This document shows positions 19,512 to 64,000 of a DNA stretch of 64,000 nt, one piece after another. The notes under the pieces are model-generated. The model saw nothing but the letters and a program-made list of their open reading frames with translations, was not told where the DNA came from and did no database searches. How positions within the stretch are numbered: position 1 is the stretch's first letter; every line of letters begins with the position of its first letter. The DNA comes from a virus. The DNA lies in the IMG/VR virus record IMGVR_UViG_3300044729_003379, positions 9,727 to 73,726 of that record, one strand, 5' to 3'. The position numbers and the translations under genes are program-made.

Positions 19512-21085
19512 TGTCAAAAGAAATTTCATACGGAAATTACACATTTCCTCATCCATACCCTTTTTTGGGTATTAGTCATGAACCAGTTATTGTTAGTGGG
19601 GTTCTTGATCATAGTATTCTTACAGCTTCTCTTGTTGGAGAGTTAACTGGATGTAACTTAACCAGTTTAAAAAGGCAAAAGGATAATTTGATTTTGGCAT
19701 TATCGACGGGTTTTCAAACTCTTATTGTTGGGGAAAAGACGTATAGTTATGCACAACCTGTTTCTGTTTCTTTTTCTTCTTCAAATATAAGGAACACACT
19801 TCCTTATTCAATTGATTTTACAATACAAAACGAGACTGACTTTTCTCAATTTTACGGAATAAGAGACCCAATTGATACTTGGTCTTTTAACGAAGCAGAA
19901 GATAGAACCGTTTCTGCGGTTCATACCGTAAGTGCCTACGGAAATAAAATCACAGGAGATTCTTTTACCAATGCATCTAATTTTGTGAATTCAAGAACAA
20001 CTGGATTCGATATAAATTTGGCTAGTTTTTTTTCTGGCAAATCTCCAATTTTAATCAGCAAGAACGAAGAAATAAACAGATTTGAAAACTTTTACTCTGT
20101 TGTTGAGAATTGGAAGTGTTCTATTTCTCCGAATGATTTTGATAAACAAGATAGTATAGTTAGAGCAAATTGTTCAATTAATTACGACCAAGATGGAGTG
20201 TTGAACATTTCTGTGAATGGAACAATTGAAGGTGGAATTAGCGGTTCCGCATCTACTGGGTATTTTACAGACAGTGACGCAAAACTGTTTGCACAAAATG
20301 CGCTAGCTAATTGTAAGAGTGAAATTGAAAATGATTTATATGGATTACTTTTTACAAGCGCGACAAGTAATTCTTATGATATAGATACTGGAAATAACTC
20401 AATTTCCTTCTCTTATGAATTTTCCAACGCCCATGATATAAGACCAACCGGGGTTTTGCATGATTATTCTTCTTCTGTTTCTGCCAATAAAGATTCTTCC
20501 GAAATAACAGTTTCAACACAAGGAAGAGTTTATTACAAAGGTTTAAATAATCAAGTTACTGGTTCTAGTCCAGAACTCGAAACTAAGTTTCAAATGGTAA
20601 ATGCTTATTTTAGTGGGGTAAATCCATTTATTCAATCGTTTTATACTCATGATTTATTCATAACAAATATTACTGATTATTCTTTATTGCCTCTTAACGC
20701 TTCCGTCAGATCCCTAAATGTGACGAAAGACCCATTTTCTCCTTCTATTGATTACGATTATACTTATTCTAATTTTATTGATTTCTTTTCTGGAAATCTT
20801 TTAAACCCAAGTATTTCTATAAATACAGAACAGGAATATTCAAAACACGCAATTCAACAAACTGTAGATAATTCTTTTGCAGTCCAAAGAATCTATACAT
20901 CGAACAAAAAGGTTTCTGTATCTGTTAATGGGCAAATTCCTAGTGGTAAAAATGTAAATACAGTTGTAAATATTGTAAGCGGATACATTAAAAACTATTC
21001 GGTTCCAAATGGATTTTTGACAGAAAACTCTATAGAAACAGGAAACGGACAACTTGCGATGAGTCAATCATTTTTCTTTAAATAA
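19511..21085 (+). CDS. Putative tail tip/baseplate protein
   Basis: Beta-rich, composition like the previous ORF; translationally coupled. Confidence 0.5.
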   Translation: MSKEISYGNYTFPHPYPFLGISHEPVIVSGVLDHSILTASLVGELTGCNLTSLKRQKDNLILALSTGFQTLIVGEKTYSYAQPVSVSFSSSNIRNTLPYSIDFTIQNETDFSQFYGIRDPIDTWSFNEAEDRTVSAVHTVSAYGNKITGDSFTNASNFVNSRTTGFDINLASFFSGKSPILISKNEEINRFENFYSVVENWKCSISPNDFDKQDSIVRANCSINYDQDGVLNISVNGTIEGGISGSASTGYFTDSDAKLFAQNALANCKSEIENDLYGLLFTSATSNSYDIDTGNNSISFSYEFSNAHDIRPTGVLHDYSSSVSANKDSSEITVSTQGRVYYKGLNNQVTGSSPELETKFQMVNAYFSGVNPFIQSFYTHDLFITNITDYSLLPLNASVRSLNVTKDPFSPSIDYDYTYSNFIDFFSGNLLNPSISINTEQEYSKHAIQQTVDNSFAVQRIYTSNKKVSVSVNGQIPSGKNVNTVVNIVSGYIKNYSVPNGFLTENSIETGNGQLAMSQSFFFK

Positions 21086-22416
21086 TGAATAAAGCTTTTG
21101 AAAATTTAATAGATGCTTATGTCTTTGGTTCCACTGGCACATTGATGTTATATTACGATATGAACACCTTTGGAGTCGAAAATGGTAGTGGATATGTAAA
21201 AAACGTATCTCCATCATCTACGGTTGGATACAATAATGCCTTTCTGGATTCTGGAAAGAACACGGGAATGTTCAGAAGTGGCAATTATAGCGGCTGCAAT
21301 TTGGCATATTCTAAACTTACAATTGATTCATTTAATAATGGCTTTTTAAATACAGGAAACACAGATTGGTATGCTACTTTTCTATTTTCATTTACCAAAA
21401 CACACCAAGAGGATGGAGTTTTATTTGGATGCTTAAATAAAGATACTATTGATTATTATGGACTTTCTGGAACCTATGGAAGGGGATTTAATATTGGAGT
21501 TAATGATAGAAATCAATTATTTTTCCAAGGTATAGATTTTGAACAAGGACCATATATCATAACATCAGATTCTTTTGAATTAGCAAATAAAAATCTGTGT
21601 TCTGTAGTTATAAATCCAAGTAACGTTTCTTTTGGTTATTATGATTTAGGTTCTGATCGTTTTTATGAACAAACAAAAATAACAAATATTAATATTGAAA
21701 ATATTTTTAGTAACGAGAAATTTTATATTGGAGGTTCTAATTTTTATTATAAAAATCCTTCTTTTAGTGGTTATATTGATAATTTTGCAATATTATCTGG
21801 TGATTATCATCCAAGCACATTGAAATCGTTAATGTCTGGATTTGTATCAATGGAGATTATTGATACTGGTTCTCTAGATTTTTCTTCTTTAATAACTGGA
21901 TATGAAATAGAAATAATACAGGAAACAGGTATAACAGGTTATGTTGCAACTTTAACTGGTTCTAAGAATTTATATACTACTGGTTATTTTTTTGAAAGAG
22001 TTCCCATCTCCTCTTCTAATAGCACACCAATTGTTGAAGGAAATAGAATTATAACTGGTTATTCTTTAGCAAATGGAATTATTTACAATGAAGAAATTGG
22101 AAATATTTATGTTACTGATCAATACGTTACATCTGGAAACGATGCACACGCAACACTTGGTTTAATATCTGAACTATTGACATTTCAAACTGGTGGAAAA
22201 ACATTATTGAAATATAAAGTTAATCAGACAGGTGTTTTACCTCTTTATAGACTTGATGCATTAACTGGTTTTATTGGTCCTACTGGTTTATCAATTGATC
22301 CATTAACACAACAACAATTTATAGAAGGAAGCACTGGATATGATTATGTTCTTAATACAGGATTAATGAATGAATATCAACACAATTACATTTACTATCT
22401 AAGCGAAAGATTATGA
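21085..22416 (+). CDS. Tail-associated protein with LamG/concanavalin-like domain
   Basis: FYIGG...FSGYIDNFAI is the LamG-like C-terminal signature; TG-rich C-terminal half. Confidence 0.6.
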   Translation: MNKAFENLIDAYVFGSTGTLMLYYDMNTFGVENGSGYVKNVSPSSTVGYNNAFLDSGKNTGMFRSGNYSGCNLAYSKLTIDSFNNGFLNTGNTDWYATFLFSFTKTHQEDGVLFGCLNKDTIDYYGLSGTYGRGFNIGVNDRNQLFFQGIDFEQGPYIITSDSFELANKNLCSVVINPSNVSFGYYDLGSDRFYEQTKITNINIENIFSNEKFYIGGSNFYYKNPSFSGYIDNFAILSGDYHPSTLKSLMSGFVSMEIIDTGSLDFSSLITGYEIEIIQETGITGYVATLTGSKNLYTTGYFFERVPISSSNSTPIVEGNRIITGYSLANGIIYNEEIGNIYVTDQYVTSGNDAHATLGLISELLTFQTGGKTLLKYKVNQTGVLPLYRLDALTGFIGPTGLSIDPLTQQQFIEGSTGYDYVLNTGLMNEYQHNYIYYLSERL

Positions 22417-23129
22417 TAGAATACTATTTAAATACAGGAGTCGAAGATGACTCAGACAACTATTACAGAAATACTCAATTATCTAATGCGAGTGTTTTTA
22501 TTGATTCTAATAATAAATTTATAAATCAAGTTTATGCAGATGGACAGACTCTTTTAGAGGACGATGTTACAGAAACATCGTTAAGCACTTCAATTAAAAC
22601 TTATACGCATAGTGGTGATTTTTATATTGATTCCTTTTCTTTAAAAAATTCTGGTGATTATTATAATTTTGAAGGCATTGAAACAGTAAATTATGACATA
22701 ATGCAATCTGGAAAAAGACCATTCTTTGAATCTGATAATTTTAATAATTTATTGAATGGATTTGCAAATAAAATTGCTGGACAAGTAAGTGGAGATCTAT
22801 TTTTTATTAATGGAATTAAATTAATAAGTGGTATTCATTATTATGTTCATAATGGAATTTTTGAGTGGAATGATGGTAATCCAACATCTTTAGAACTCAG
22901 TGGAATAATGTTTTCTATGCCAAATAATTTTGATGTTATCATAACTGGTCAGTATGACATATATAATCAAAATTTTAAAATAGGAACAACAGTTGCCTAT
23001 TTAAATGGTGTAAGATTATATCAAGATGATTTATTGGAAACATCAACAATAAATACTCTAATAAATACAGGAATTGAAGCAAAAATAAGATTCTCACCAA
23101 AGAGACAAGAACAAATTATCTTCTTTTGA
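22413..23129 (+). CDS. Putative virion structural protein
   Basis: Repeated FINGIKL / YLNGVRL beta motifs common in phage tail proteins. Confidence 0.5.
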   Translation: MIEYYLNTGVEDDSDNYYRNTQLSNASVFIDSNNKFINQVYADGQTLLEDDVTETSLSTSIKTYTHSGDFYIDSFSLKNSGDYYNFEGIETVNYDIMQSGKRPFFESDNFNNLLNGFANKIAGQVSGDLFFINGIKLISGIHYYVHNGIFEWNDGNPTSLELSGIMFSMPNNFDVIITGQYDIYNQNFKIGTTVAYLNGVRLYQDDLLETSTINTLINTGIEAKIRFSPKRQEQIIFF

Positions 23130-23132
23130 ATT

Positions 23133-25700
23133 ATGCCTAATTATGTAAATAACGCACCTTTGGGTTCTGCTTTTGGCGGAAAAATAGCTACATTAAATTA
23201 TAACTATTCTCCAAACGAGGGTCCATCTTCAGCAACAATTACAATAGTTAGTGAAAATAATAGATATATAGAACCTATTCTTCTTTCTAATTTTAATATT
23301 CCAATTTTAAATATTCCAATGGTGATTGTTGAGGTTCAATATAATGACGACAGCACAGCAAGAACATTACAAATAGAATTGATTGATAAAACCTCTTTAT
23401 ATCTTGATACTAATTTAATTCTTGTTAATGGTGTTCATTCATCAGGTGTAGAAGGTAATTCTAGCTCTTCAAATTCTTTTCATTTTTATCCAAAAACAAC
23501 AGGAACAATTAATAATAATTCATTTGGTAATAAGGGAAGGCTTTCTATAACTTCGGGAGGAAGTGGTGGAAGAAATTGTAGGTATATAGGTGGACTTAGA
23601 AGCACAGTAAAAGTTTCATCTGCTTGGGATGGGGATACCCAATTATTTAAAAATAATACACAACCATATACAACAGTTGTTTTTCAAGACAATAAATTCA
23701 GACAAGATTTAAGTGGAAAAAAAGCAGGTTCAATACTTCCAATTTTTCAAAAATTTGGAGATACTAGCAATTTTGAAGTTTCAAATGAATGGGGCTATAC
23801 TTTTAATCAATTATGTAATAATATTTCTATTCCAATAAGGAATAAACCAAATATTAACGATAATTATTATTTTAATCAAGCTGGAACATGTAGATCTGTA
23901 TTATCTGGTGTTCTTTCTTCTTTAGGAAAGAGTTTTTACATTAATCCTTTTGATGGAAGTATAAATATCATTGATAATGGTTTTATTAATCAGATTAATA
24001 GAACATTATCTTTAAAATATACTTCTTTACTCAAAGAGTCTTTTTCTGATAATTCTATTACATCTATAAATATAAAAAAGTCATGTAAAGAAACCACAGG
24101 AAGACATACTGTATTAACTGGTTCTTATGAAAACAATGTAGATAAATCAGGAGGTGGGGGTTCTGGAGATACAAATATTCCAGATAAACCACAATATAGA
24201 ACATTTTATAAATATTCAAATGTTGACGTTATTTCTCCAAGTGAAAGAAAGTTTTTCCAAAAAATACTTCCTTTGTTTTGGTTTAATTTTTCACAAAGAT
24301 CTGTTGATGATTTTATTTATGCATTAGCAAAATTAGAAGATCCTACTACTTGGTCAGAAAAAAGTGGTGATGAATCAATTTATTCTGGAAATACAGATTC
24401 TAATGGAAACACCATGATAGATAAAACAAATCCAAAAGCAACTTTAAGACCTTCTGATTTAAATAAATCTGGAGAAGATTTAGAGGCTTTATTAAGTTCT
24501 GAATATATAAGCATAATGTTGGAAAATATTTCAAGCGGAAATATTCCAGACAAATTTGATTTAAATCAAGAGATTGATATATACCCAAATACTAGAAGAG
24601 CAAAAGTTGGAGAAAATTTTACACTTAATGCTGCTGCTGTTTCTCCTTATGAAAAAATATCACCATATATTGAAGGTATAAACATGGCTTTATTTACTCT
24701 TCATGTTACTAAACCAATTTCAAAGAAAAAAGCCCTATCTATGAATTGGGCAAGTCCATCTAGTGGGCAAAAAGACCCAATTAATAATAATATAAAAATA
24801 GCTGGTCCATATGCATCTGATACAAAAATATCAGATATTCCAGAATTAGCTCCATTAAATTTTATTCTTTCTAGATTTGGAAAAGAAACAAAAATAACAA
24901 TAGGTAAAATGGCAAAAGATGCTGCTGGAAATTTTAGATCTAACCAATCTGGAGATGTTTCAACAGGTTATCATTTTATAGCAATAAAAGACATTGCTGC
25001 TATTCTTCCTAAGAATTTAGGAACAATTCCAAATGACATTATTAAATCTATTGAAATGAATGTTTTTTCAAGCGCACCAATAAATGAAAGTTCAACTGGT
25101 CCTATTTTGGCTCTAACAAAAAGAGGACAAACAAGTATAAAAAATATCGCAGAAAAAAATGCTCAAATATTTCAAGAAATTGTTGACAATATAAGAAGGT
25201 CTACAAATACAAATTTTAGAATTCCATATACTAAACTAGATGAAAATGACGCTTCTTATGAATATCCAGATAATACAGCATCTGAACCAGAATTACCAGA
25301 GGTAAAATCAATAAGAACAATACCAACAAAGCAACCAACATCTGGAGATGCTGGTATGACAAAAATTGAATTAGATACTTACCAAGGTTCAATAGAAGAT
25401 CTTAGTTATATTGATGATAGTTTCTTTAAAGAAACTCCGGGTCCATCTTTTGAAGCTTCAATTACTTTTTTTAGACCTCCAATAAAATCTGATTTAGATG
25501 TTTTTTCTGGTTTGTCTTCAATTTCTTGCTCATTTAAAGGAGATGGAGTAGAGACTAATGTTTCATATAGCACTAGAAATTATTTAAACATGGATAAATC
25601 TTTAGTTCAACAGCTTACAAGAGGAAGCTCTATTCCTGCTCCAAGATTTGGTCCAAATTTTATAAATAAACCAGCATTTATAAAAAATAGAAAATCATAA
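23133..25700 (+). CDS. Putative tail tip/hub protein
   Basis: 855 aa, last gene of the tail operon; N-terminal hub-like pattern (GTCRSVLSGVLSSLG.SFY). Confidence 0.45.
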   Translation: MPNYVNNAPLGSAFGGKIATLNYNYSPNEGPSSATITIVSENNRYIEPILLSNFNIPILNIPMVIVEVQYNDDSTARTLQIELIDKTSLYLDTNLILVNGVHSSGVEGNSSSSNSFHFYPKTTGTINNNSFGNKGRLSITSGGSGGRNCRYIGGLRSTVKVSSAWDGDTQLFKNNTQPYTTVVFQDNKFRQDLSGKKAGSILPIFQKFGDTSNFEVSNEWGYTFNQLCNNISIPIRNKPNINDNYYFNQAGTCRSVLSGVLSSLGKSFYINPFDGSINIIDNGFINQINRTLSLKYTSLLKESFSDNSITSINIKKSCKETTGRHTVLTGSYENNVDKSGGGGSGDTNIPDKPQYRTFYKYSNVDVISPSERKFFQKILPLFWFNFSQRSVDDFIYALAKLEDPTTWSEKSGDESIYSGNTDSNGNTMIDKTNPKATLRPSDLNKSGEDLEALLSSEYISIMLENISSGNIPDKFDLNQEIDIYPNTRRAKVGENFTLNAAAVSPYEKISPYIEGINMALFTLHVTKPISKKKALSMNWASPSSGQKDPINNNIKIAGPYASDTKISDIPELAPLNFILSRFGKETKITIGKMAKDAAGNFRSNQSGDVSTGYHFIAIKDIAAILPKNLGTIPNDIIKSIEMNVFSSAPINESSTGPILALTKRGQTSIKNIAEKNAQIFQEIVDNIRRSTNTNFRIPYTKLDENDASYEYPDNTASEPELPEVKSIRTIPTKQPTSGDAGMTKIELDTYQGSIEDLSYIDDSFFKETPGPSFEASITFFRPPIKSDLDVFSGLSSISCSFKGDGVETNVSYSTRNYLNMDKSLVQQLTRGSSIPAPRFGPNFINKPAFIKNRKS

Positions 25701-26555
25701 TATCCAAGAGTTTTCAGTTTTTTCAATTTCTTGAAAGTTATGATTTAAGAAGTGATATCTATAAAAGTTTTTCCAAACTCTGTGCGAGTTTATAAATGTT
25801 TTAAAAGTATCATAATCCATTTCTTTCAAGAAATAAATGAATCCTTTTAGAGATTCTAAGCTATTTGTATCAAAACCCTTTGAAACAGCTTCGCTTCTAA
25901 TAAACTGTCTTATCATTTCTGCTCTTTGAAATTGCTCAAATTGATTTTCCAATCCCAAAAGCAAATGATTTGATCTTCCATAAATCCAAGCGTATTTAGC
26001 TTCATGATTTATTTTGTTATCAAAAGGTCTACCTCCCTCTTCTCCATCTTTTATTCTCCAAGTGATTTCTTTCTTACTTTCATCGTGGGTGTTTTTGATA
26101 TCTATAGCCTGTTGTTGTGCGCCTACTAAACCCCAATGAGGACTTCCATTAAAAACCATAGAATCATTCCATTTGAAGGCAAAACCCTTTCCATAATTAA
26201 AAATAGACTTTATTCCATTGAAATCGTGGGCATAAATCCACTCTTTTATGTTTCTTGCCCATTTTTGATTAATTCTTTCCATAGAATCCCTCAAGATGAA
26301 CCAATCACCGTTCTTCATTGGCCCTTCTCGTAAGAAAGTATTCATCTGTAGGTCGTGATCGTTCGTCCAAGGTCTCAGGATGACAGAACCCGCTCCCTTT
26401 CTTTCTTGAAGCAATTTATAACAAGCATCGTCCTCATTGAAATCTCGACTATCATATCCAAAGATTAATCCATCAACATATTCCCAAATCGGGTCTGTTA
26501 ATTCTTTGATATTTTGGTATTCATTTTTATTTGTAATTCCACAAAGATAAATCAT
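25695..26555 (-). CDS. Glycosyltransferase family 2-like protein
   Basis: GT-A pattern WFILRDSMERI (variant of LDADE) and F.G.PHW; likely start MIYLCG at 26555. Confidence 0.55.
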   Translation of the reverse strand: MIYLCGITNKNEYQNIKELTDPIWEYVDGLIFGYDSRDFNEDDACYKLLQERKGAGSVILRPWTNDHDLQMNTFLREGPMKNGDWFILRDSMERINQKWARNIKEWIYAHDFNGIKSIFNYGKGFAFKWNDSMVFNGSPHWGLVGAQQQAIDIKNTHDESKKEITWRIKDGEEGGRPFDNKINHEAKYAWIYGRSNHLLLGLENQFEQFQRAEMIRQFIRSEAVSKGFDTNSLESLKGFIYFLKEMDYDTFKTFINSHRVWKNFYRYHFLNHNFQEIEKTENSWIL

Positions 26556-26557
26556 AA

Positions 26558-27346
26558 TCAATCCTCCCAATATTTAAAAACGTGGTCTTTCCATCCAAAC
26601 GGAACTTCTCCGTTTTCTGGCCAATTTCCAGAAATAGCCTTTTCCCATTGCTCATCGCTTAGTGGGGGAAAAGAGTATTTTTCTTTTGGAGTTTTTAAAC
26701 AGATGAGTTGTTTGGTGTCTGTTCTGTGTTTCCACATTGATCCGTCTGGATTTGTTCTAATGCTCCACTTTCCTCTATCTATAAATGGTGGGACTTTTTG
26801 GGAGCCGATTTCATATGTAACAGAAATATAAGAAAGGCCACGCTCTTCGATGTTTTCTTGAACGCATTGTTCAGTCCATTTTATATGATCCCAAGGACCG
26901 GGACCACCAATGCTTTTTGGAATACTGTTATAAAAATCTACAGAAATAAACTGCGCCCTCTCACTGTATTTACCGTGTCCTTGATCTCCTGAGAGGTCGA
27001 TGTGTGAAATTTTATATTTCTGTAATAGATTTTCAAATTCTTCTATTTCTTTTTGTGTTATTTTTGTATAGAGAAGATGATCAACTTGAATATAAAATGC
27101 GTATTTGCTTTTGCATTGAGCAAATAATTGTATTGTTCCTGCTCCACAACCAACATTTGTTGTGTTATTAATTACCTCATCTTGATCCGACAACAACCCT
27201 TCTTCTTTAAAAGAGTCTGCATATCTTTCCCCGCCATTATTTAATATGGTAATCTTCTTGTCAAACAAGGCGTTTACTTTTAACGAAAACAACAAATCTC
27301 TCAATTCATTTTCTCTATTAAAATCAAGAATTAATATTTCAGTCAT
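26558..27346 (-). CDS. Glycosyltransferase family 2
   Basis: ILILDFNR..L..LL.SL, ITILNNG, N.G.GAG and KYAFYIQVD GT2 motifs. Confidence 0.7.
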   Translation of the reverse strand: MTEILILDFNRENELRDLLFSLKVNALFDKKITILNNGGERYADSFKEEGLLSDQDEVINNTTNVGCGAGTIQLFAQCKSKYAFYIQVDHLLYTKITQKEIEEFENLLQKYKISHIDLSGDQGHGKYSERAQFISVDFYNSIPKSIGGPGPWDHIKWTEQCVQENIEERGLSYISVTYEIGSQKVPPFIDRGKWSIRTNPDGSMWKHRTDTKQLICLKTPKEKYSFPPLSDEQWEKAISGNWPENGEVPFGWKDHVFKYWED

Positions 27347-27761
27347 CAGATTTTTCTCTTTTAAACAATGGGCCAGATAAGTCTACTGATATTCCATTTT
27401 TTTCTATTTTAGTTGGCTTGTCGTGAAAGTGTTTTACTTTATTTTTCTTTTGATAATCGTCAAAATACTTTCTTTTAACAGGATCTTCGTGACCAAGTTT
27501 GTCCTTTCTTTTTTCAGAAAGTTCTTTAGAAGCATCCCACAAATCTCCAACAGTTCCTTTTCTTCTTCCGGTAATTTCTGTTGCTTTATTTAAATCAAAT
27601 GGATTGATTGTTCCAATTCTTTCTGCGCTAACTTGGGGTGCGGTTAAAACTCTCTTCCACTCCAATCCTTCTTCATCAAAATATTCGTGTTTGTCATTCA
27701 TTCTTTGAATGACTTCTACATACTCGTCTTTGTTTGGGTGCTTGTAGATATAGGTTGGCAT
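27339..27761 (-). CDS. FmdB-like small protein
   Basis: MPTYIY N-terminus and EVIQRM / WKRVL pattern of the FmdB zinc-ribbon family, but cysteines are absent. Confidence 0.5.
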   Translation of the reverse strand: MPTYIYKHPNKDEYVEVIQRMNDKHEYFDEEGLEWKRVLTAPQVSAERIGTINPFDLNKATEITGRRKGTVGDLWDASKELSEKRKDKLGHEDPVKRKYFDDYQKKNKVKHFHDKPTKIEKNGISVDLSGPLFKREKSDD

Positions 27762-28867
27762 TATAATTGTTTTGCAATGTTTAAAATGCTATTGACTGTT
27801 TTTTCGTATGTGAAAAATTCGCGAAGTTCTTTTCCGCTATCTTCTTTGTAATTATTTAAAAAGATATCTTCAGATTCTTTGATTGCGGCAGAAATAGATT
27901 CTGGTTTAAAGTAATGAAAACAACCTTGGTTATATTCCATTCCACGATGGAAGAAAACCCCATCATAACATTCTTCGATTCCACTCGGTTCAAGTTTAAT
28001 TAAATTTGAATTACTAAATTCGTTAACCCAATCTAGATGTGCGCCACCCAATCCGACCACACAAACCTTATTCATACAAGCAGCGTTAAAGCTTGGAAGA
28101 TTCCATCCCTCATTCCCACAACATCCAGAAAGATCAATGTCAATAGAATTAATGAATTGATTTACTTGTGAATTTGTTTCAAGAGTGGGTAGAAAGTTGA
28201 TATTACTGTAGTGCTTTCCTTCTAGGGTATTGATGATTATTTGATCAAAGGTTTCTTTTGGAAAGAAGGGGTTATTGATTAGGCATGTTAACTGATATTT
28301 GTTGTTGTTACCATAAAGCTTCAACCACTCTCTAATTACAGTCTGTGTATTTTTTCTCTTTTCTAATTTTCCACAAATTCCGAAATGAATTACGTCTGGC
28401 TTTTTTACGTCTTCAACATAAAAATCTTCATCGAAACCAAGAGGCACGAAATAAAATTTGTCTGGATTTACTTTTCCAGTCTTTAAGAAAGCGTCAATAG
28501 CTTCGGTGGAGGAAAAAATAACAGCATCTTGTTGATTTACAAGATTAATTTCTGTTTCTGTTGGCATATCAACCTCATAAAACGAGAAAAGAATTTGCTT
28601 TTTTGCAACCCTTCTTTCACAACCGTTGATATGCCAAACTTTTAAAGCGATATCTTCTGCGCTAAATTCTTTATTGAAGTTTTGTATTTTATTAACAATC
28701 TCTCTTTTGAGATTTTCATTTGCGCGATCAAAAGATTGAAAGGAAATTTGGTTTACACATTGAGGTAAACACATTGATTTTAATTCACCTCTCCTTGATA
28801 ATTCTCTTGCAATGTTGAATGTAACGTTTCCAAGAGATAGGTTATTGATTGGTCCTTCAAGAATCAT
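27761..28867 (-). CDS. Glycosyltransferase family 4 (GT-B)
   Basis: VPLGFD, GKLEKRKN and EGWNLP motifs. Confidence 0.8.
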   Translation of the reverse strand: MILEGPINNLSLGNVTFNIARELSRRGELKSMCLPQCVNQISFQSFDRANENLKREIVNKIQNFNKEFSAEDIALKVWHINGCERRVAKKQILFSFYEVDMPTETEINLVNQQDAVIFSSTEAIDAFLKTGKVNPDKFYFVPLGFDEDFYVEDVKKPDVIHFGICGKLEKRKNTQTVIREWLKLYGNNNKYQLTCLINNPFFPKETFDQIIINTLEGKHYSNINFLPTLETNSQVNQFINSIDIDLSGCCGNEGWNLPSFNAACMNKVCVVGLGGAHLDWVNEFSNSNLIKLEPSGIEECYDGVFFHRGMEYNQGCFHYFKPESISAAIKESEDIFLNNYKEDSGKELREFFTYEKTVNSILNIAKQL

Positions 28868-29433
28868 GATATTGTATCCTTTATTTCTTTTAAAATTGTT
28901 TTACCTATTTGTTCTATTCTTTGTGGCTTTAAATTAAATTGATCAGCAATGTCTATAAGCTTTCTTTCTTTTTGAAATCTTTCGTAAAAGATTTTGCAAT
29001 CTCTTTCGCAAAACTTCTTTTTCACAACGTTATCAATTATAGAGCAGATTTCCTTTTTTTCAAGCTCATGAACAATTGATTTGTTGTCTTCTATATTGTT
29101 TACATCAAGCTCTAAATCGTCAATAAATTCTTTGTCTGCCTTTTTGTTTTCTGAGGTTCTTTTTGATTTGCATTTATACTTGGTTATGTTTGCAAGCCAA
29201 GTATGAAATTGAGATTTCTCATTAGAGAAGGAGGAAATTGCATCCCAGAAAAATGAATATTTGTCTTCAAGAATTTCCTGCATCCAAAAATTCTTTCTAT
29301 TTTGAGGACAATATCTTGATACCGTGTCTACAAAAATTCCAGAGTGTCTTTCTATTAGTTCGTTAAAGGCTTCGTTGCTTTGTTCTTCCTTCGCCATTCT
29401 GACCAATTCATTGTCATCCAAATCTATAATCAT
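28864..29433 (-). CDS. RNA polymerase sigma factor (sigma70 family, regions 2 and 4 only)
   Basis: DNELV...AFNELIERH, SQFHTWL and C-terminal HTH LIDIADQFNLKPQRIEQI. Confidence 0.8.
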   Translation of the reverse strand: MIIDLDDNELVRMAKEEQSNEAFNELIERHSGIFVDTVSRYCPQNRKNFWMQEILEDKYSFFWDAISSFSNEKSQFHTWLANITKYKCKSKRTSENKKADKEFIDDLELDVNNIEDNKSIVHELEKKEICSIIDNVVKKKFCERDCKIFYERFQKERKLIDIADQFNLKPQRIEQIGKTILKEIKDTIS

Positions 29434-30041: not shown

Positions 30042-30048
30042 AATCAAA

Positions 30049-30531
30049 TTATTTACCAGTTGAACCAAAACCTCCATGCCCTCTGTTGGAGTCGGATAAT
30101 GCTGTTGCAGGATACAAGACTGATTCAACTTCTTTAAAGAAGAAGAGTTGGGCTATTTTATCTCCTTTTTTGTAAATGTATTTTTCATCGATTCTGATAT
30201 CGATACTATAAGAATTTTCCGATAGACAAAAATCAGTTTCCGAAGGTAAGTATCGGAACCTTAGTTTAATTTCCCCTCTGTAATTGTTGTCTATGATTGC
30301 AGGAGAATTAGCCAACATTAAGCGAGTGTTACTGATGCTACTTCTTGGCACAATTAATGCATGAACGTCTTTGCTTAGTGGGTTGATAAATAGATTTGTG
30401 CCATATTCGATATACCTTCTTTCTGGATCGAAAAAAGGATCTGTTGACGCCACTAGATCGTATCCAAGGTCTCCCGGCCTTGGAAGCTTGATGTTTTTGT
30501 AACCTTCTTTTAAGACAGAAATATCCTCCAT
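30049..30531 (-). CDS. dut: dUTPase (trimeric)
   Basis: GYDL, PRSS, IIDNNYRGEI, IAQL and RGHGGFGSTG motifs. Confidence 0.95.
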   Translation of the reverse strand: MEDISVLKEGYKNIKLPRPGDLGYDLVASTDPFFDPERRYIEYGTNLFINPLSKDVHALIVPRSSISNTRLMLANSPAIIDNNYRGEIKLRFRYLPSETDFCLSENSYSIDIRIDEKYIYKKGDKIAQLFFFKEVESVLYPATALSDSNRGHGGFGSTGK

Positions 30532-31886: not shown

Positions 31887-31906
31887 TTTTTTAGATTTTA
31901 ATTATT

Positions 31907-55163: not shown

Positions 55164-57378
55164 ACAAATTGAACTTCTCTTAAATCTTTCCAACGAAACT
55201 GCTGAAAAATATTCTCTTGGAGAAATTGATGAAGATGTTTTTTTTAATTCATTGTTAAACAGTCAAAGTCTTGGCATCGAAAGTATCTTTAAATGTTTAG
55301 AATTAAACTACCAAGATATTGTTAAATTTTCAAAGGCAATTATCTTTGAAAAAGAAATTAAAGGAACAAATAAAGAATTAACACAAAATGTTTTAACTTT
55401 GCTTGAAGAAGCTTTTCGCTTTTCAAAGGAAAGAGAAATTGATATTTGTTTTGTTTCTATGCTTCGTATGTTCTTTTTGCTTGAATATGGTCAGATTGTA
55501 AAAACGATTCTTACCTCAATGAAGAAAGAAGAGGTGGTTGCAGTTTGTGATTCGTTTCTTTATGATGAATCCGATATTTTTCCCATCCAACTAAAGCATA
55601 ATGAAGATGAAATTTCTTTTGGCGATTTTTCAAACAAAATCTTCTTAAAGAAGAATGAAGAAGACCCAATTTTATCAAGATTTGCTGAGAATCTTAATTT
55701 GAAAGCTTTAAATGGAGAGTTCGACAATCTTATTCAGTTCAATGATATTATTGATGAACTAACTACCGTTCTTTGCAAGCAGAAAAAGCCAAATGCAATT
55801 CTAATTGGACCTGCTGGTGGAGGAAAAACAAGTAATGTCGAATTGCTTGCTAAAAAAATAGTAGAAGGAACTGCACCAGAACTTCTTTTAGACAAAGTTA
55901 TTTATAGCGTAAGTCTTTCTGACATGGTTGCCGGGACTCAATTTAGAGGACAGTTTGAAGAAAGATTGAAAGAATTTACAACACACGCAAAGAAGTGTTC
56001 CAATTTGATTTTGTTTATTGATGAAATTCATACATTGGTCGGCGCTGGTGGTTCTCGTCAAAACGATCTTGATGCGAGCAACATCTTGAAACCCGCCTTA
56101 GCTAGAGGGGAAATCTCCTGTATTGGAGCTACAACAATCAATGAATATAACAGGGTTATCAAGAAGGATACGGCTTTAGATAGGCGTTTCGAGAGGATTA
56201 TTGTAAATCCCCCTTCTTTTTATAAAATGCAAGAGATTTTGCCACAAATAATCTCTTTCTATGAAAAGTTCCATAGCACTAAATATTCAAAGGAATTTGT
56301 GGAAAACCTGATTCCAATGTGCGAGAAATATATGCCTAATCGACATTATCCAGACAAAGCTGTTGATATTATTGATTATTGTGGAGCATTGGCTAAGGTT
56401 GATTTTTGGAGACTTTCCCCGGAAATCAAAGAAATGGCTGAAACTGCCCAAAAGACAGGAAAAGAAGAAGATGCTCTAAAGCTTGAAGAAATGATGAACA
56501 AGTGGGGTGAGAAAATGATTTTTGACGAATCAGAAGTTACAATAGACGTTTTAAGAGCTTATTTTGATAAAAAGGTAAACTTCCTACATCAAAAAGAAAA
56601 CATCAAGAATCTCCCTTCTTTCTTAAAGGAAAGGATCGTTGGTCAAGACTCTTTTATTGATACATTTATTAAAAACCTCAACACATCAAGTTTGGGAATT
56701 GAAGCCCTAAATAAGAATAAGGCTCCGACTGTATTTTGTATATATGGTGAAAAGAATAATGGTAGATCGTTTTTTTGCTCAACCATTGCAGATTTCATCA
56801 AAATGAACAATGGCCTCGTCTTTGAATATAACGGTCTTGAATTTGATGCCATAGAAAAGGTTATTTCATCTGACGCAGATGGAAATTCTCTTGCCCAAAG
56901 AGCATCGATTTCCCCAAATAGCGTAATAATCATTGACGACTTTGACAAAATCAACGAAAAACAATGCGGAGTTGGGTTTAGACAAATCTTCAAAGAAGGA
57001 AGGATAACAAAGAGTGATGGTGAAATTTCAGATTTTTCAAATATGATATTCATTATTTCTGCTCCTTCCAAGTCTTCTGGACTTCTTGGATTTGGTATTG
57101 AGAACAAAAATGATCAAGTAATGATTGATCAAGATTTGAGTAAATTTGTTTCTTATCAGATTAAGTTAGAAAACATTTCACTTGAATCCTTGAGAAAAAT
57201 AGCAAGTGATTCTCTTACCAGAATTTCAAAAAATCTTGCGGAAAAAGGAATCTCCTTTTGTTATCCAACTCTTCAAGAGATTGAGGCAATTTCTGAACAA
57301 GCTTTTATTACAGAAAATAAAATAAAAACCTTGGAAAATAAGATTCAAGAACTTCTTAGAGAAAGAGGATTAATCTAA
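55153..57378 (+). CDS. ClpA/ClpC-like AAA+ chaperone
   Basis: D1 Walker A GPAGGGKT, AGTQFRGQFEER, FIDEIH, LKPALARG, GATT, RRF and PDKA.D; degenerate D2. Confidence 0.9.
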   Translation: MKNKQIELLLNLSNETAEKYSLGEIDEDVFFNSLLNSQSLGIESIFKCLELNYQDIVKFSKAIIFEKEIKGTNKELTQNVLTLLEEAFRFSKEREIDICFVSMLRMFFLLEYGQIVKTILTSMKKEEVVAVCDSFLYDESDIFPIQLKHNEDEISFGDFSNKIFLKKNEEDPILSRFAENLNLKALNGEFDNLIQFNDIIDELTTVLCKQKKPNAILIGPAGGGKTSNVELLAKKIVEGTAPELLLDKVIYSVSLSDMVAGTQFRGQFEERLKEFTTHAKKCSNLILFIDEIHTLVGAGGSRQNDLDASNILKPALARGEISCIGATTINEYNRVIKKDTALDRRFERIIVNPPSFYKMQEILPQIISFYEKFHSTKYSKEFVENLIPMCEKYMPNRHYPDKAVDIIDYCGALAKVDFWRLSPEIKEMAETAQKTGKEEDALKLEEMMNKWGEKMIFDESEVTIDVLRAYFDKKVNFLHQKENIKNLPSFLKERIVGQDSFIDTFIKNLNTSSLGIEALNKNKAPTVFCIYGEKNNGRSFFCSTIADFIKMNNGLVFEYNGLEFDAIEKVISSDADGNSLAQRASISPNSVIIIDDFDKINEKQCGVGFRQIFKEGRITKSDGEISDFSNMIFIISAPSKSSGLLGFGIENKNDQVMIDQDLSKFVSYQIKLENISLESLRKIASDSLTRISKNLAEKGISFCYPTLQEIEAISEQAFITENKIKTLENKIQELLRERGLI

Positions 57379-58020
57379 TTCTCCCCTTTTTCTCAAAAAT
57401 CCTAAATAATGAATAATATCTCCATGAGAATTCATTACAGGAAAACAGTGAGATTCTAACAATAGAACGTCTCCATCAACCGTTTCCATGATAATATCAA
57501 AAGATATTTCCCTTCCTTCTTCAAAAGCCCCCTCCCAATTTTCTTGAATTTTTTGGGTAAAACGTTTCCATCCAAATCCCATTAATTCTTCTTTGCTGCA
57601 ACCAATCATCCGACAATAACATCTATTTACTGCAAAAATAAAGCCATTTTTATTACATTTAAATATAGCTTTATCTCCATTTTCATTTGCAATATTCATT
57701 TCCATTTCAATAATTGAAATTTTGGAATCAATTCTATTAATTGAATCTTTAATAGAGTGACCATGATTTGGTTGGAATTCTTTTGAAATAATATCAATAG
57801 ATGTAAATACATCTTTTAAATATGCAACCCCTTTATTTAATGAAGTTAAAATTGGAAAGAATAGTTTACTCCATATAAAAAAAATAGCAGTAAAAGTTGT
57901 TGAAATTAAAATAATAGATTTAGAAATAGCATCAATACTCATTTCATATATAAAATATTGTGCAAAAACCATTGCTGCTAAAATTATTATAAAAATAAAA
58001 ATTAAAATGCTATTTCTCAT
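57370..58020 (-). CDS. Membrane protein with C-terminal PAS domain
   Basis: Two TM helices, PNHGHSIKDSINRID linker, PAS pattern IF....G....VN..YC.M.G...EEL.G.GW. Confidence 0.7.
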   Translation of the reverse strand: MRNSILIFIFIIILAAMVFAQYFIYEMSIDAISKSIILISTTFTAIFFIWSKLFFPILTSLNKGVAYLKDVFTSIDIISKEFQPNHGHSIKDSINRIDSKISIIEMEMNIANENGDKAIFKCNKNGFIFAVNRCYCRMIGCSKEELMGFGWKRFTQKIQENWEGAFEEGREISFDIIMETVDGDVLLLESHCFPVMNSHGDIIHYLGFLRKRGELD

Positions 58021-60216: not shown

Positions 60217-60230
60217 GTGTATAAAAGTGT

Positions 60231-61823
60231 ATGTCCACATATAATCTATTTTTGTCTGCGTCAGACGCCGATACTGCAATTACTAGATCTCATAGATTGT
60301 TTCACGATCAAGGATTAACAGGCGTTAATTTAAATCTGTATGGGGCAAACATCAATCATTGGGGAACAATTAATTCTACTGCACTTAATATAACAGGAGA
60401 TATTGGAGAGCCTTCTTACATTAAACAATTAACTGGTGGTATAAGAGTTAATGGGCAGTCAGAATTTCAGTCAATAATTGGAGGCATAAGAGTTCAAGGA
60501 ACATCATATATTCAATCTTTAACTGGTGGTCTTAATATTAATGGAAACATTTCTTCGGCTGGAAACATTTCCAATGTTGGAAATATATTAAATAATGGCT
60601 CAGTTACGATTAATGGTGGAACAAGGATTACTGGTGTTACAAATATAACTGGTGCAACAAATATTATTGGCAACACTTACATTAAAGGAAACTTCTTTAA
60701 TGAAGGAACAACTGCAACAATAAGAGCAACAACAACTGCTATTTCTGGAAACACCCTTAATTTAAATGGCACAACCCTCAATTCTACATTTACAAATTTC
60801 AATCTTGGAGCTACAGCTTTAAACATTAACGCACAAACCCAAATACAAGGAAACACCAATGTTAATGGAACCCTATCTGTAAACGGAGTTCCCATTACTA
60901 ATTCCAATATAACAAATGTTTCGAATTACTTTCTTACAGGAGGCGAATGTGTAGAAGCAATAAATGTTGGGGGAGGAGTTATTCAAGGAAGATATGCAGA
61001 CTATGATCTTGTTTCAGCAAACGAAGGAAGTCCTACTGGGGTGGCAAGAGGAGAATATGCCATAGACCTTCAGATGGTAAGACAAAACACCTCACAGGTT
61101 GCAGCCGCTTCTGGAAGTGCAATATTAGGTGGCAGATGGAATGCCACTAAAAGAAGCACTTCTCAAGGTGATTGGGCAACCGTTGTTGGTGGGTTGGCAA
61201 ATACGGGGCTTGGGCCAATATCGGTTATATTGGGAGGAAGTCAAAATGAAACAAGTTCGTATGCGGAACATTCAGTTGTTTTTGGAAACAGAGCTGTATC
61301 ATACAATGATAATGAACTAGCTCAAGGAAATGGTTCTGTGTATGGTTATCAAAGAACTTGGCTTGTAGGAAATGGAAGCCTTAATACAGATGGGATTAAT
61401 TTTGGTTCTGGGATATTTAATTGGGATCAAACAAACTTTTCTTATCCATACATATTAGCGGCTCCAAATAAAAGTATAAGCTTTTTTCTAAAAGGTTATG
61501 GGGTAATAAGTGGACCCAATACTGGTGTAATTTTAATGGAAGGAATTGGTTTCGCAGACGCTAATAATTTTTATGTTACAACAACTAGATCTCTTGGGGT
61601 TGGAGTTTCTTCAAATATTGTTTTTTTTACAGGTTCTAGAGAATCTGCTCCTTGGGCGGCTACTAATACTGCTTTTAAATTAGGTATTTGTAGTAATTCT
61701 GCTATTGGTGCAACATTTTCTGTTGCTGTAGATACTATTTCAAATAATCCCCTTCCAGAAGAAGACACAGGATTATTTGCAGCTATTGATCTTAATCAAA
61801 ATCTTGATGTGTTATTTTCATAA
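60231..61823 (+). CDS. Tail fibre/spike-like protein
   Basis: N/T/G/I-rich beta-helix repeats, RGEYAIDLQ and GG..N repeats; GTGTAT motif upstream. Confidence 0.65.
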   Translation: MSTYNLFLSASDADTAITRSHRLFHDQGLTGVNLNLYGANINHWGTINSTALNITGDIGEPSYIKQLTGGIRVNGQSEFQSIIGGIRVQGTSYIQSLTGGLNINGNISSAGNISNVGNILNNGSVTINGGTRITGVTNITGATNIIGNTYIKGNFFNEGTTATIRATTTAISGNTLNLNGTTLNSTFTNFNLGATALNINAQTQIQGNTNVNGTLSVNGVPITNSNITNVSNYFLTGGECVEAINVGGGVIQGRYADYDLVSANEGSPTGVARGEYAIDLQMVRQNTSQVAAASGSAILGGRWNATKRSTSQGDWATVVGGLANTGLGPISVILGGSQNETSSYAEHSVVFGNRAVSYNDNELAQGNGSVYGYQRTWLVGNGSLNTDGINFGSGIFNWDQTNFSYPYILAAPNKSISFFLKGYGVISGPNTGVILMEGIGFADANNFYVTTTRSLGVGVSSNIVFFTGSRESAPWAATNTAFKLGICSNSAIGATFSVAVDTISNNPLPEEDTGLFAAIDLNQNLDVLFS

Positions 61824-62848
61824 TGTTTGAAAAGAAAATAATAATGTGCGGTCTTGCTAATAATAAGACTTCTTTAGGAGAAGTTTTTAGGAGGGAAATT
61901 GATTGTTTTAAAAGTTTTTCAAATCCAGACGTTTTTGATTTACAAGAGTTTGCACATACAAATACAGCAAAGATTGATCTATTCCCACAATATAAGGGAC
62001 CATTTAATCACGATATTAAATATTTTCATCCACCATTTGGATTATATAATAATATAAAAAAACAAACAAATCCTCTCCCAAGAGATGTTAATAAGAAAAA
62101 GATTGGTTATTTTGTTTGGGAAAGCTCAGAATTACATCAATTTCAACAAGAGGTTCTACAAGATTTTGATGAAATATGGACAGCAAGCCATTATTGCAAA
62201 GATATTTTTTCTCAATATATCGATGAAAAACTTATAAGGATAATACCCCACCCCATTGTTTTTCCAAAAAAACCTAAAAAATATGCAAAATTTACAATTT
62301 TAATTATTGGAAACATATCATCAAATATTGATAGAAAGAATTTTGAAGCAAATTTAAAAGTTGCAAAAATAATAAGTAAAAAATATAAAAATATCAATAT
62401 AATTTTAAAAACGACAACATTTAATTCTGAAGAAAAGAAGAAGCTTAAAGAGCTTGTTGCTGGTTATAGGCTTAAAATAATAGATGATTATTTGTCAATA
62501 GAAAATGTTCAAAAATTAATTGGAAAATGTCACATGATTTTGTCTTTGCATCGTTCAGAAGGGTTTGGGTTAACGTTGGCAGAGGCATTATCTGTTGGAA
62601 CAATTCCTGTTGCAACTGGATATTCTGGAAATCTTGAGTTTATGAAAAACAAGGAAACCCTTGTTGATTATACTTTGGTAGATGTTAAAGATAATTATTT
62701 CAAAGGACAATGGGCAGAACCAAATATAGATGATTGTATTGACAAAATCGATAATATAATAAAAAGAGGAACAACAATTGATTCTATACAATTTTTGTCA
62801 TATTCAAATATTTCCAAACTTATATTAGAAACCTTACAAAATGATTGA
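61823..62848 (+). CDS. Glycosyltransferase family 4
   Basis: GYFVWE, DEIWTAS, RKN, SLHRSEGFGLTLAEA, ATGYSGNLEF and WAEP. Confidence 0.85.
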   Translation: MFEKKIIMCGLANNKTSLGEVFRREIDCFKSFSNPDVFDLQEFAHTNTAKIDLFPQYKGPFNHDIKYFHPPFGLYNNIKKQTNPLPRDVNKKKIGYFVWESSELHQFQQEVLQDFDEIWTASHYCKDIFSQYIDEKLIRIIPHPIVFPKKPKKYAKFTILIIGNISSNIDRKNFEANLKVAKIISKKYKNINIILKTTTFNSEEKKKLKELVAGYRLKIIDDYLSIENVQKLIGKCHMILSLHRSEGFGLTLAEALSVGTIPVATGYSGNLEFMKNKETLVDYTLVDVKDNYFKGQWAEPNIDDCIDKIDNIIKRGTTIDSIQFLSYSNISKLILETLQND

Positions 62849-63509
62849 TTTTAATAAATTATTATTTAGAGACAGGACTAGCGATGAAAACGTTTTCAAT
62901 AATGTATTCAAAAAAAATGAATACAATTTGAAAGAATTACCAGAAGAAAGCGTGGTTATAGATATTGGGGCGCATATTGGTAGTTTTTCTTTAAAAGCAT
63001 TTGAAATGGGTTCTCGTAATATTTTTGCATTTGAAGCCAATACGCATAATTCATTAATATGTAAATACAATTGCGAACCATATAATATAAAAGTTTTTAA
63101 TAAAGCTATTAGGGGGAATAAAAAAATGGCATTTGTTTCGAGCCGTTTTAATAGAAAAGACTTACCCGAAATTATTAATTATGGAGGACTGAGTATTGCT
63201 TTGGGTAATGACATCGAAGTAATAACTTTAGAAGAAGTCTTATCTTCCGTTGGGGGGAAAATAGATGTTTTAAAATTAGATTGTGAAGGCTCCGAATATC
63301 CTATTATTTTTGAATCAAACAAAAATGTATTTAATAATATCAAAAGCATAATTGGAGAAATTCACCCCGGTTCATTGCCAATAAATTTTTGCGAAGGCTT
63401 TATAAATAGTGCAAGTAATTTTGAACAATATTTACAAGAACAAGGGTATGAAACAAACTTTAAAGTTAATCCAGAAAACGGTTTCGGACATTTCTTTTGT
63501 TTTAAATAA
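62841..63509 (+). CDS. FkbM family methyltransferase
   Basis: VIDIGAHIGSFS, AFEA, LKLDCEGSEY and GEIH. Confidence 0.9.
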   Translation: MIDFNKLLFRDRTSDENVFNNVFKKNEYNLKELPEESVVIDIGAHIGSFSLKAFEMGSRNIFAFEANTHNSLICKYNCEPYNIKVFNKAIRGNKKMAFVSSRFNRKDLPEIINYGGLSIALGNDIEVITLEEVLSSVGGKIDVLKLDCEGSEYPIIFESNKNVFNNIKSIIGEIHPGSLPINFCEGFINSASNFEQYLQEQGYETNFKVNPENGFGHFFCFK

Positions 63510-63511
63510 AG

Positions 63512-64000
63512 ATGAACTATTTAGTATATACCCCCTATAGATGCGGGTCTAGTTTTTTAACGAGACTAATACAAAAAAACCTTAACGAAAGGAGCGTCAT
63601 CTTCTTAAAAGATATAAACAAAAACACCCAACAAGAGGATTTCTTAATAAAAGGACATAGAGAGGATCTTTCTATTCTTGGAAACAGAAAAATAGATTAT
63701 TTGTTCACCTCTATAAGAAAGCCTACGGATATTTTTATTTCTGCATTTTTTAAAGACATAAAAGAGAAAGATTATCCTTATTATTACCCTAACGATATTT
63801 GTAAAGAAAATACAAAGGATATGATGGATTTTTTTCTTTCTATTCCTTGGGAAGATTATGAGTGGTTATCTTATGAATTTAATTTTAAACAAATTGAAAA
63901 CTTAACTTCGATAAATTTGTGGCAAGAAGATTTTGATAAAAACAGGGGATTTAATAAATTCGTTAAAAAAGACACAACATTAATTGCGACAACTCATGAG
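63512..64000 (+). CDS. Putative sulfotransferase (3' truncated; not in ORF track)
   Basis: MNYLVYTPYRCGSSFL (5'-PSB loop), IKGH, SIRKPTDIFISAF (3'-PB motif); frame open to window end. Confidence 0.6.
   Translation, partial: MNYLVYTPYRCGSSFLTRLIQKNLNERSVIFLKDINKNTQQEDFLIKGHREDLSILGNRKIDYLFTSIRKPTDIFISAFFKDIKEKDYPYYYPNDICKENTKDMMDFFLSIPWEDYEWLSYEFNFKQIENLTSINLWQEDFDKNRGFNKFVKKDTTLIATTHE

Follow-up and report, generated by a model that had tools for sequence, protein, structure and literature searches.

An excess of serine/threonine-glycine dipeptides in tail proteins of an uncultured aquatic phage lineage and its co-occurrence with a split GT4-GT9 glycosyltransferase core

Do the tail proteins of a large uncultured phage carry a simple two-residue mark for the attachment of sugar? 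The question is raised by a 64,000-nucleotide stretch of viral DNA (the window), bases 9727-73726 of the 73,726-bp IMG/VR record IMGVR_UViG_3300044729_003379, in which several tail and fibre proteins place serine or threonine directly before glycine ([ST]G) far more often than expected, and which also encodes a set of glycosyltransferases (GTs). A reading of the DNA made without database searches (the sequence-only reading) had proposed that [ST]G is an O-glycosylation signal and that the virion bears a methylated or sulfated coat containing deoxyhexose. The record is linear and 51% complete by CheckV, and the window covers about half the genome of an uncultured aquatic tailed phage of roughly 145 kb. 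What is new here is the dipeptide signal and its on/off behaviour. On comparative grounds, [ST]G may be a sugar-attachment mark.

The excess was measured against 5000 shuffles of each protein. In the tail protein encoded at 21085-22416 (+), 25 of 49 glycines are preceded by serine or threonine where 8.8 are expected (ratio 2.83, p 0.0002), and the fibre-like protein at 34338-35411 (-) has 17 of its 34 glycines in [ST]G (ratio 2.18, p 0.0004). The hand counts of the sequence-only reading for these two proteins, 25 of about 49 and about 17, were exact. The strongest excess in the window belongs to 9975-10457 (+), a late protein of 160 amino acids whose gene directly follows a tail-tube-like gene; it has 8 [ST]G sites among 21 glycines, with 2.5 expected (p 0.001). 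The 238-residue tail protein at 22413-23129 (+) has such a residue before 9 of its 18 glycines (2.8 expected, p 0.0006). These recurrences had also been listed before, as had two that drop out: the fibre-like protein at 60231-61823, discussed below, and 7806-8672, where 5 sites against 2.2 expected are not significant (p 0.05). The protein at 19511-21085 (+), which had not been named, carries 16 sites against 6.9 expected (p 0.0004). A weaker excess in the 855-residue tail protein at 23133-25700 (+) (20 versus 11.1, ratio 1.8, p 0.003) is not kept in its homologues, whose ratios are 0.92-1.0.

The same shuffles reveal no notable excess in head proteins, in the tape measure or in any replication protein. 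Ratios for the replication enzymes are near or below 1, in agreement with what had been claimed for them. When proteins are pooled, TG reaches 2.15 times and SG 1.36 times expectation in structural proteins, versus 1.01 and 0.82 in non-structural ones. The bias is limited to virion proteins, those of the distal tail and the fibres. Threonine is as frequent as serine at the sites, and no extended sequence logo was found around [ST]G apart from mildly hydrophobic flanks. Codons at the sites are mixed, and enrichment of the word [CG]TGG is confined to the phase in which it encodes [ST]G, which puts the signal at the level of protein and not of DNA; the hexamers are mixed as well, and a DNA-level motif is ruled out as the source. 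G+C content is likewise ruled out, since the 19511 orthologue poorest in sites comes from the relative whose G+C is highest (0.405).

Related loci provide a broader view of the signal. A set of 42 loci from IMG/VR and a further 80 found with a GT4 profile give 122 in total, over which the excess is conserved in four mutually non-homologous families. Pooled ratios in the 42 loci are 2.16 for the 19511 family, 2.24 for the 21085 family, 3.03 for the 22413 family and 2.14 for the 34338 family; the unenriched families include the tape measure (0.98), the 23133 family (0.92) and the 17979 family (0.40). All 115 homologues of the 21085 protein in the database hold a ratio of 1.65-3.15, down to 29% identity, and over the related loci the 22413 family stays at 2.5-3.0. 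The 9975 family shows SG at 2.64 and TG at 3.38. Genome-wide scans were made of the relative G007 (146,905 bp, with direct terminal repeats and 100% complete) and of a 118-kb relative. There, the excess occurs only in the homologues of 9975, 21085, 22413 and 34338, in an unannotated 214-residue open reading frame (ORF) and, in one genome each, in the homologues of 19511 and 7806.

Two general causes of such a pattern can be set aside. Generic tail-protein composition is ruled out by five outgroup phages, T4, lambda, SPP1, S-CBS4 and HTVC008M, which contribute 86 structural proteins including baseplate, Dit/Tal and long-fibre proteins. In none of the 86 does a ratio above 2.1 go together with p below 0.005, and pooled ratios are 1.0-1.26. 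Ratios in T4 and lambda structural proteins range from 0 to 2.3, none with p below 0.02; S-CBS4 and SPP1 together give 1.04, and HTVC008M, an AT-rich marine pelagiphage, gives 1.26. S-CBS4 has a GT cluster of its own in its head module, yet lacks the bias. Common ancestry of the enriched proteins is also ruled out, with hhalign probabilities below 2% for every pair of families tested except 17979/19511.

That exceptional pair demonstrates that a protein's fold does not dictate the bias. The genes 17979-19511 (+) and 19511-21085 (+) are adjacent, and their products, about 520 amino acids each, are paralogous over about 400 residues (hhalign 95%, E 3e-8) and probably form a hetero-oligomeric baseplate hub or Dit. 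The 17979 product has none of its 22 glycines preceded by serine or threonine and is rich in DG and NG; its family carries 0 to 8 [ST]G sites, mostly 0-3. Orthologues of the 19511 product carry from 1 to 26. Their remaining glycines number only 16-28 (about 20-26 in site-rich members), so the extra glycines arrive almost only as [ST]G units. There are 22 columns that read [ST]G in site-rich orthologues, with free interchange of serine and threonine, and site-poor orthologues show SS, NS, NN, NA, LK or QA at these columns. In a quick tree search rooted with the paralogue, basal clades have 22-26 sites, and nested clades have 12-19 and then 1-4. The 19511 model (predicted local distance difference test, pLDDT, 79) strings together strand-strand-helix modules, repeated units of tube-like fold that resemble, weakly but consistently, phage baseplate hub, Dit and Hcp proteins. 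DSSP strings place 14-15 of its 16 sites in hairpin turns, strand-helix loops or helix caps.

If the signal is read by a sugar-transferring enzyme, the enzyme should accompany it among relatives. The sequence-only reading had linked the bias to the GT at 25695-26555, an accessory GT-A-like gene spanning 25695-26570 (-). It has no Pfam match, and its assignment draws solely on ESM features, by which it resembles (0.95) viral clusters of which 54% carry PF00535. Its distribution is sporadic: 8 of 13 related records surveyed for accessory genes encode it and 5 do not, among them the complete G007, in which the ratio is still 2.2 for the 21085 homologue and 2.9 for the 22413 homologue. An accessory GT2-like gene at 26558-27346 (-), with a weak PF00535 score of 18 bits below the cut-off of 23.3, is found in one of the 13. 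A GT4 gene at 61823-62848 (+), with 48.8 bits for PF00534 against a cut-off of 26.4, is present in none of them and is thus unique to this phage in that comparison. A tie between the bias and any of these three genes is ruled out. What always co-occurs with the bias is a split GT4-GT9 core made up of soluble GT-B enzymes, not the accessory GTs.

The first core gene, 36015-37925 (+), encodes 636 amino acids with a GT4 domain and a GT9 N-lobe at the C-terminus. It has more than 3000 homologues, many annotated with PF00534; its own score of 21 bits is below the cut-off of 26.4, and its profile matches BshA (5d00). Inside the GT4 domain sits a zinc-ribbon-like CxxC-x14-CxxC insert whose four cysteines (C271, C274, C289 and C292) are kept in 28 of 28 members. 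The N-lobe-like segment, which includes IIIPESAGDVLM, gives a weak profile match (E 0.09) to residues 9-66 of the GT9 chain 3tov. The second core gene, 37929-39056 (+), encodes the donor-binding GT9 C-lobe followed by about 220 residues of other sequence. Its residues 32-148 correspond to positions 107-231 of the PF01075 profile (32-33 bits, cut-off 22), the GxDSxxxHxAxA motif of the GT9 donor lobe reads GIDSSPAHIASA, and the family profile matches WaaF (1psw, E 0.0014). The two Rossmann lobes of GT9 are not on one chain here. Because the N-lobe ends the 36015 protein and the 37929 protein begins at the GT9 linker, the GT9 unit is split over two proteins, and this split is kept in 76-80 of the 80 loci. 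A conserved 254-residue partner, 39059-39823 (+), always follows both core enzymes. Searches of single GT proteins against PDB sequences with phmmer gave nothing useful.

Core and biased genes are neighbours. Next to the tail module, 34-39 of the 42 loci have homologues of 36015, 37929 and 39059, and such homologues are present in 76-80 of the further 80. The core belongs to an operon that begins with a gene for a single-stranded-DNA-binding (SSB)-like protein, and the fibre-like gene 34338 is divergent from this operon in the window, a pairing kept in most relatives. Of 70 loci, 54 have an [ST]G-enriched gene (p below 0.01) at this divergent position, and the pooled ratio is 2.13. In G007 and in the 89%-complete relative G002, the core operon has the tail-tip module on one side and a divergent fibre gene on the other. 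Distant relatives that share the core have fibre-sized ORFs flanking it that lack BLAST matches to window proteins and are strongly enriched, for example L105:5566-8052 (63 sites versus 24.9, p 2e-15), L130:9190-10995 (38 versus 11.7, p 6e-14) and L128:4846-8100 (67 versus 29.3). In the core flanks, 33 of 573 unannotated ORFs have p below 0.001.

The reading we prefer, with a probability of roughly 0.4, is that the core GT4-GT9 enzymes glycosylate the serine or threonine of short [ST]G loops in distal-tail and fibre proteins in the cytoplasm, and that accessory enzymes extend and methylate the glycan. The core enzymes would act on folded or folding virion proteins and place sugar on the hydroxyl group, much as TibC and AAH do on ...NSGG... 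loops. This glycan would afterwards be lengthened and methylated by the products of a variable island of sugar genes and of a late GT4-FkbM block, in a way that differs between strains. Proteins that need to stay unmodified, such as 17979-19511, the tape measure and the capsid, would avoid or lack the motif. Counted in favour of this reading are the range of 1-26 sites within one fold, the constant co-occurrence with the GT4-GT9 core, the TibC precedent and the translational coupling of the late GT4 to a fibre gene. A broader version, which we regard as doubtful, makes [ST]-Gly loops the acceptor of a previously unknown two-chain GT4-GT9 complex throughout a large uncultured aquatic lineage, with up to about 25 sites per protein gained or shed and the variable island setting the glycan of each strain.

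TibC and AAH are soluble cytoplasmic heptosyltransferases of GT-B fold that O-glycosylate many serines in short loops of the beta-rich proteins TibA and AIDA-I (PMC4358343). TibC modifies Ser-313 in QNSGG and does not modify threonine; it is a single chain that forms a dodecamer, with a four-cysteine iron finger inserted in its catalytic domain (PMC4358343). The phage system resembles TibC/AAH in having a soluble GT-B enzyme of heptosyltransferase type, and may do so in its four-cysteine insert and in the beta-rich proteins with loop sites that would be its substrates. It differs in that two proteins share the phage GT9, which is joined to a GT4, and in that the four cysteines lie in the GT4 part. 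The TibC substrates are autotransporters, whereas those of the phage enzymes would be tail proteins. TibC is restricted to serine, whereas TG is the stronger signal in the phage. A profile built from 27 GT9 C-lobe proteins matched WaaF and WaaC but, with E values up to 1 admitted, no chain of TibC, so membership in the TibC/AAH group is unsupported.

Several observations weigh against glycosylation at [ST]G. Those just described are among them: the greater enrichment of TG would be unexpected of an enzyme working by analogy with TibC/AAH, and the GT9 profile is nearest to lipopolysaccharide (LPS) heptosyltransferases. All relatives carry the core, which leaves none without these GTs for comparison, and the neighbourhood of core and biased genes is inherited gene order rather than a set of independent events. 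The core GTs reside in an operon with SSB and replication genes that lacks the late motif described below. Some virion proteins that might be expected to carry a coat are not enriched, as is true of the capsid candidate (0.3-0.8 in the genome-wide scans of relatives), of fibre ORFs of 1500-1800 residues in a relative (1.1-1.3) and of the 60231-61823 fibre, where 16 sites against 13.9 expected give a shuffle ratio of 1.15 (p 0.29). The remaining objections come from the 21085 family. Across 44 sequences, T271 and T394 are invariant threonines, T284 is threonine in 43 and T291 in 42; one of these four near-fixed sites shows a single serine, and one [ST]G site of the family exchanges threonine with valine or isoleucine. 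Conserved sites lie in predicted long beta ribbons, where the next residue is tyrosine, phenylalanine, isoleucine or valine. Judged from the model, the fixed-threonine ribbon part of the 21085 pattern looks structural.

These features are what would be expected if [ST]G were an ordinary turn or beta-bulge motif, an ST-turn followed by glycine, that is preferred over Asn-Gly and Asp-Gly and never modified, with the GTs serving another target such as the host envelope. The preference might perhaps arise because NG and DG decay chemically in long-lived virions. Besides the four threonines and the exchange for valine or isoleucine, this explanation draws on the positional fixation of sites in the 21085 family, where 11 of 25 show 90% conservation or more in sequences as distant as 26% identity, and on their placement in predicted extended ribbons before aromatic or aliphatic residues. 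It also accounts for the low-[ST]G orthologues that hold SS, NS, NN or DS at the same columns, since these are other formers of Asx- and ST-turns. Among the five enriched families, NG is at 0.36-0.96 of expectation in all but the 22413 family, whose eight members give 1.75, and DG is at 0.39-0.78 in every one, whereas the depleted 17979 paralogue has NG at 1.23 and DG at 1.83. That NG and DG are low where [ST]G is high, and vice versa, fits a swap of turn-forming residues at the sequence level.

What a turn motif does not explain is the occurrence of the same fold with 0-2 or with 24-26 sites, the roughly 20 extra glycines that come almost only as [ST]G and exceed what a swap of N or D to S or T supplies, the sharing of the bias by five unrelated folds, and its absence from T4, lambda, SPP1, S-CBS4 and the AT-rich HTVC008M. 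An unmodified turn motif is nevertheless a serious rival, somewhat less likely than glycosylation. The sequence-only reading had suggested mapping the sites to surface loops in predicted models. Sites in the 19511 protein fall mostly in loops, turns and caps; the conserved sites of the 21085 protein are in predicted ribbons. The AlphaFold2 model of the 21085 protein (pLDDT 74) consists of an N-terminal ConA/LamG-like jelly roll and long beta ribbons in the C-terminal half. Its jelly-roll matches are lectin-like domains, the top PDB entries being the lectin-like subdomain of a clostridial neurotoxin and laminin G at template modelling (TM) scores of about 0.3; the match to the lectin fold of a neurotoxin binding domain carries no implication of toxicity. 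The 34338 fibre-like protein has a weak match to the PF21300 beta-roll, at 18.7 bits below the threshold of 30.

The setting of the core genes raises a different possibility: the conserved GT-B enzymes might place sugar on phage DNA, in the manner of T-even phages, and have no part in modifying virion proteins. The packed operon that starts at 35458 (+) encodes an SSB-like protein, the core GTs, an FkbM-like methyltransferase, GMD, and RecA-like, DnaB, primase, nuclease, split DNA polymerase III (Pol III) alpha and ClpB-like AAA+ proteins. Because they lack the late motif and are packed with replication genes, the core GTs are probably made earlier than the late genes. A third conserved GT, the GT-B/GT4-like protein of 27761-28867 (-), is encoded next to sigma-like, dNMP-kinase-like and dUTPase genes. 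Sharing an operon with SSB, RecA-like, DnaB and primase genes, and the position of this third gene, would suit a role on DNA. However, no ThyA-type hydroxymethylase (PF00303) was found in the window's own record, in the complete G007 or in the 89%-complete G002, whereas control genomes matched. A search for Tet/JBP enzymes also gave no match, but its control was equally silent. Glycan synthesis, and not base glycosylation, is furthermore the usual setting of GMD, of FkbM methyltransferases and of a GT9 module. We consider DNA as the target extremely unlikely.

At the 3' end of the window, sugar enzymes are coupled to a fibre gene. The gene 60231-61823 (+) encodes a fibre-like protein rich in glycine, asparagine and threonine and has GTGTAT 14 nucleotides (nt) before its start. 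The start of the GT4 gene at 61823 overlaps its stop codon (TAATG), and the GT4 gene is in turn overlapped by 62841-63509 (+), which encodes an FkbM-family methyltransferase (43.6 bits). The coupling of a GT4-FkbM block to a late fibre gene, as described in the sequence-only reading, is borne out; the accompanying claim of an [ST]G bias in this fibre is not. The last ORF, 63512-64000 (+), is cut by the contig end and has a P-loop-like YRCGSSF loop near its N-terminus. No Pfam family matches 63512-63997 at E up to 0.1, so its identity as a sulfotransferase is not confirmed and the sulfated coat loses its basis.

This arrangement suggests that the virion might be glycosylated on other acceptors, such as the 60231 fibre served by the late GT4 and FkbM enzymes, with the [ST]G bias unrelated. 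The overlap of the GT4 start with the stop of a late-motif fibre gene is in keeping with this idea, and accessory enzymes differ between strains as receptor-facing structures do. Such a scheme leaves both the lineage-wide conservation of the motif and its on/off behaviour unexplained, and only this phage has the late block, whereas the bias is universal. It is an improbable explanation for these reasons.

The late motif itself, as previously proposed, is backed by the sequence GTGTAW 14-15 nt before eight starts: 460, 6261, 9975 (as GTGTAT), 12156, 34338 (-), 57370 (-), 58360 (-) and 60231. The window contains 38 copies of GTGTAW on both strands. GC-rich hairpins followed by T-runs, resembling terminators, precede 9975, 57370 and 60231. 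The genes that bear the motif include one for a PAS-domain protein (57370-58020).

The wider glycan toolkit listed by the sequence-only reading stands for the most part. GMD at 40608-41663 (+) is secure, with 342.9 bits over positions 1-332 of the 332-position PF16363 profile, as are the late GT4, the FkbM enzyme at 62841 and the GT9 C-lobe, which scores above the cut-off. A second FkbM-like methyltransferase at 39824-40606 (+), an accessory gene, is borderline (22.4 versus 22.7 bits). The core GT4 falls below its cut-off but has annotated homologues. The 27761 protein is weak, its family being GT1-like via homologues only (21-23 bits, below the PF00534 cut-off); the 26558 protein is weak too, and 25695 has no match. 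A deoxyhexose in the coat would be predicted from GMD only, because no GDP-sugar reductase or epimerase was seen. GMD anchors a variable sugar island in relatives, which in G007 includes a methyltransferase and GT8-, GT2- and CAP59-like genes. At the edge of that island (G007:90858-92861) is a B12-type ribonucleotide reductase (RNR) with a class II insertion domain; the window phage has a class I RNR instead.

The [ST]G motif could also be read by some other trans-acting factor or be modified differently, for example by a kinase, or recognized by a chaperone such as the ClpB-like AAA+ protein. The motif does behave as a selected unit across unrelated folds, and the phage encodes unusual lineage-specific proteins, including the ClpB-like and PAS proteins. 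No kinase or other modifying enzyme was found in the phage, and we know of no system that uses the motif. This explanation is very unlikely.

Glycosylation of virion proteins at [ST]G, as preferred here, would have partial parallels elsewhere. Few phages have been documented to glycosylate their virions. Certain mycobacteriophages (cluster F, with two GT genes) reportedly use phage GTs to decorate their own virion proteins in the cytoplasm. Their capsid and tail-tube subunits are modified, whereas here the capsid candidate and the tube-like protein lack the bias; their enzymes are unrelated to those described here, and a dipeptide sequon is not known there. Chlorovirus PBCV-1 encodes GMD, soluble GTs and sugar methyltransferases that produce a strain-specific methylated capsid glycan without host membrane machinery. 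This virus infects eukaryotes, and its glycans are N-linked to the major capsid protein at atypical asparagine sequons by unrelated enzymes.

WaaC and WaaF (GT9, PF01075) are the best sequence matches of the phage GT9 C-lobe, and the N-lobe segment matches another GT9 chain (3tov). WaaC and WaaF are single-chain enzymes that act on lipid A-Kdo at the membrane. The phage GT9, in contrast, is split and fused to other domains, and no other LPS-core genes were seen in the phage. Xylosylation of Ser-Gly in proteoglycans, which had been cited as a precedent, is carried out by a eukaryotic Golgi enzyme that needs acidic flanks. The proteoglycan sequon and the phage motif share serine followed by glycine, but the phage uses threonine as much, its flanks are hydrophobic and the enzymes are unrelated.

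If glycosylation at [ST]G is correct, a simple motif would allow glycosylated phage proteins to be predicted from metagenomes, and the split GT4-GT9 enzyme would be revealed as a protein glycosyltransferase. Glycan coats would then be present at the host-recognition end of a phage group with thousands of members in lakes and oceans, with a bearing on host range, grazing and antibody-like recognition. Relatives that share the core enzymes beside [ST]G-rich tail proteins number in the hundreds, and their excess is 2- to 4-fold over chance. Even without sugar, a dipeptide amassed by five unrelated folds, and present 1 or 26 times in one fold, is an unexplained selective signal.

The G+C content of the window is about 0.34, and no tRNAs are present. 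The head and tail module (460-25700) includes a tape measure of 1939 residues. It is followed by a minus-strand block (25695-30531) with two GT-A-like genes, one GT-B-like gene, and sigma-like, dNMP-kinase-like and dUTPase genes, and by the small and large subunits of the class I RNR (30897-33553), which precede the 34338 fibre-like gene. The packed operon and, at the 3' end, the late fibre gene with the GT4, FkbM and cut ORFs (+) complete the gene order. Structural proteins of the window have no matches in PHROGs or Pfam, and neither megablast nor tblastn found an isolated phage relative. The 391-residue product of 8730-9905 has ESM features resembling viral clusters that carry Phage_tube_2 or Phi812 tail-tube families (12-42% of cluster members). 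This tube-like protein, the long tape measure and the lack of any sheath found suggest a long non-contractile tail.

The SSB-like gene (35458-36015), which has a weak Whirly match (E 0.0012, below the cut-off), heads the GT operon in 79 of the 80 loci. Pol III alpha appears to be split, with a PHP-domain ORF (47628-48293) about 4 kb upstream of an ORF containing the polymerase core, finger and HhH regions (52608-55163), and the same layout occurs in G007 and G002. The product of 55153-57378 is a 741-residue ClpB/Hsp104-like protein with a double AAA+ arrangement that is unusual in a phage and has homologues with 39-41% identity in the 147-kb and 118-kb relatives.

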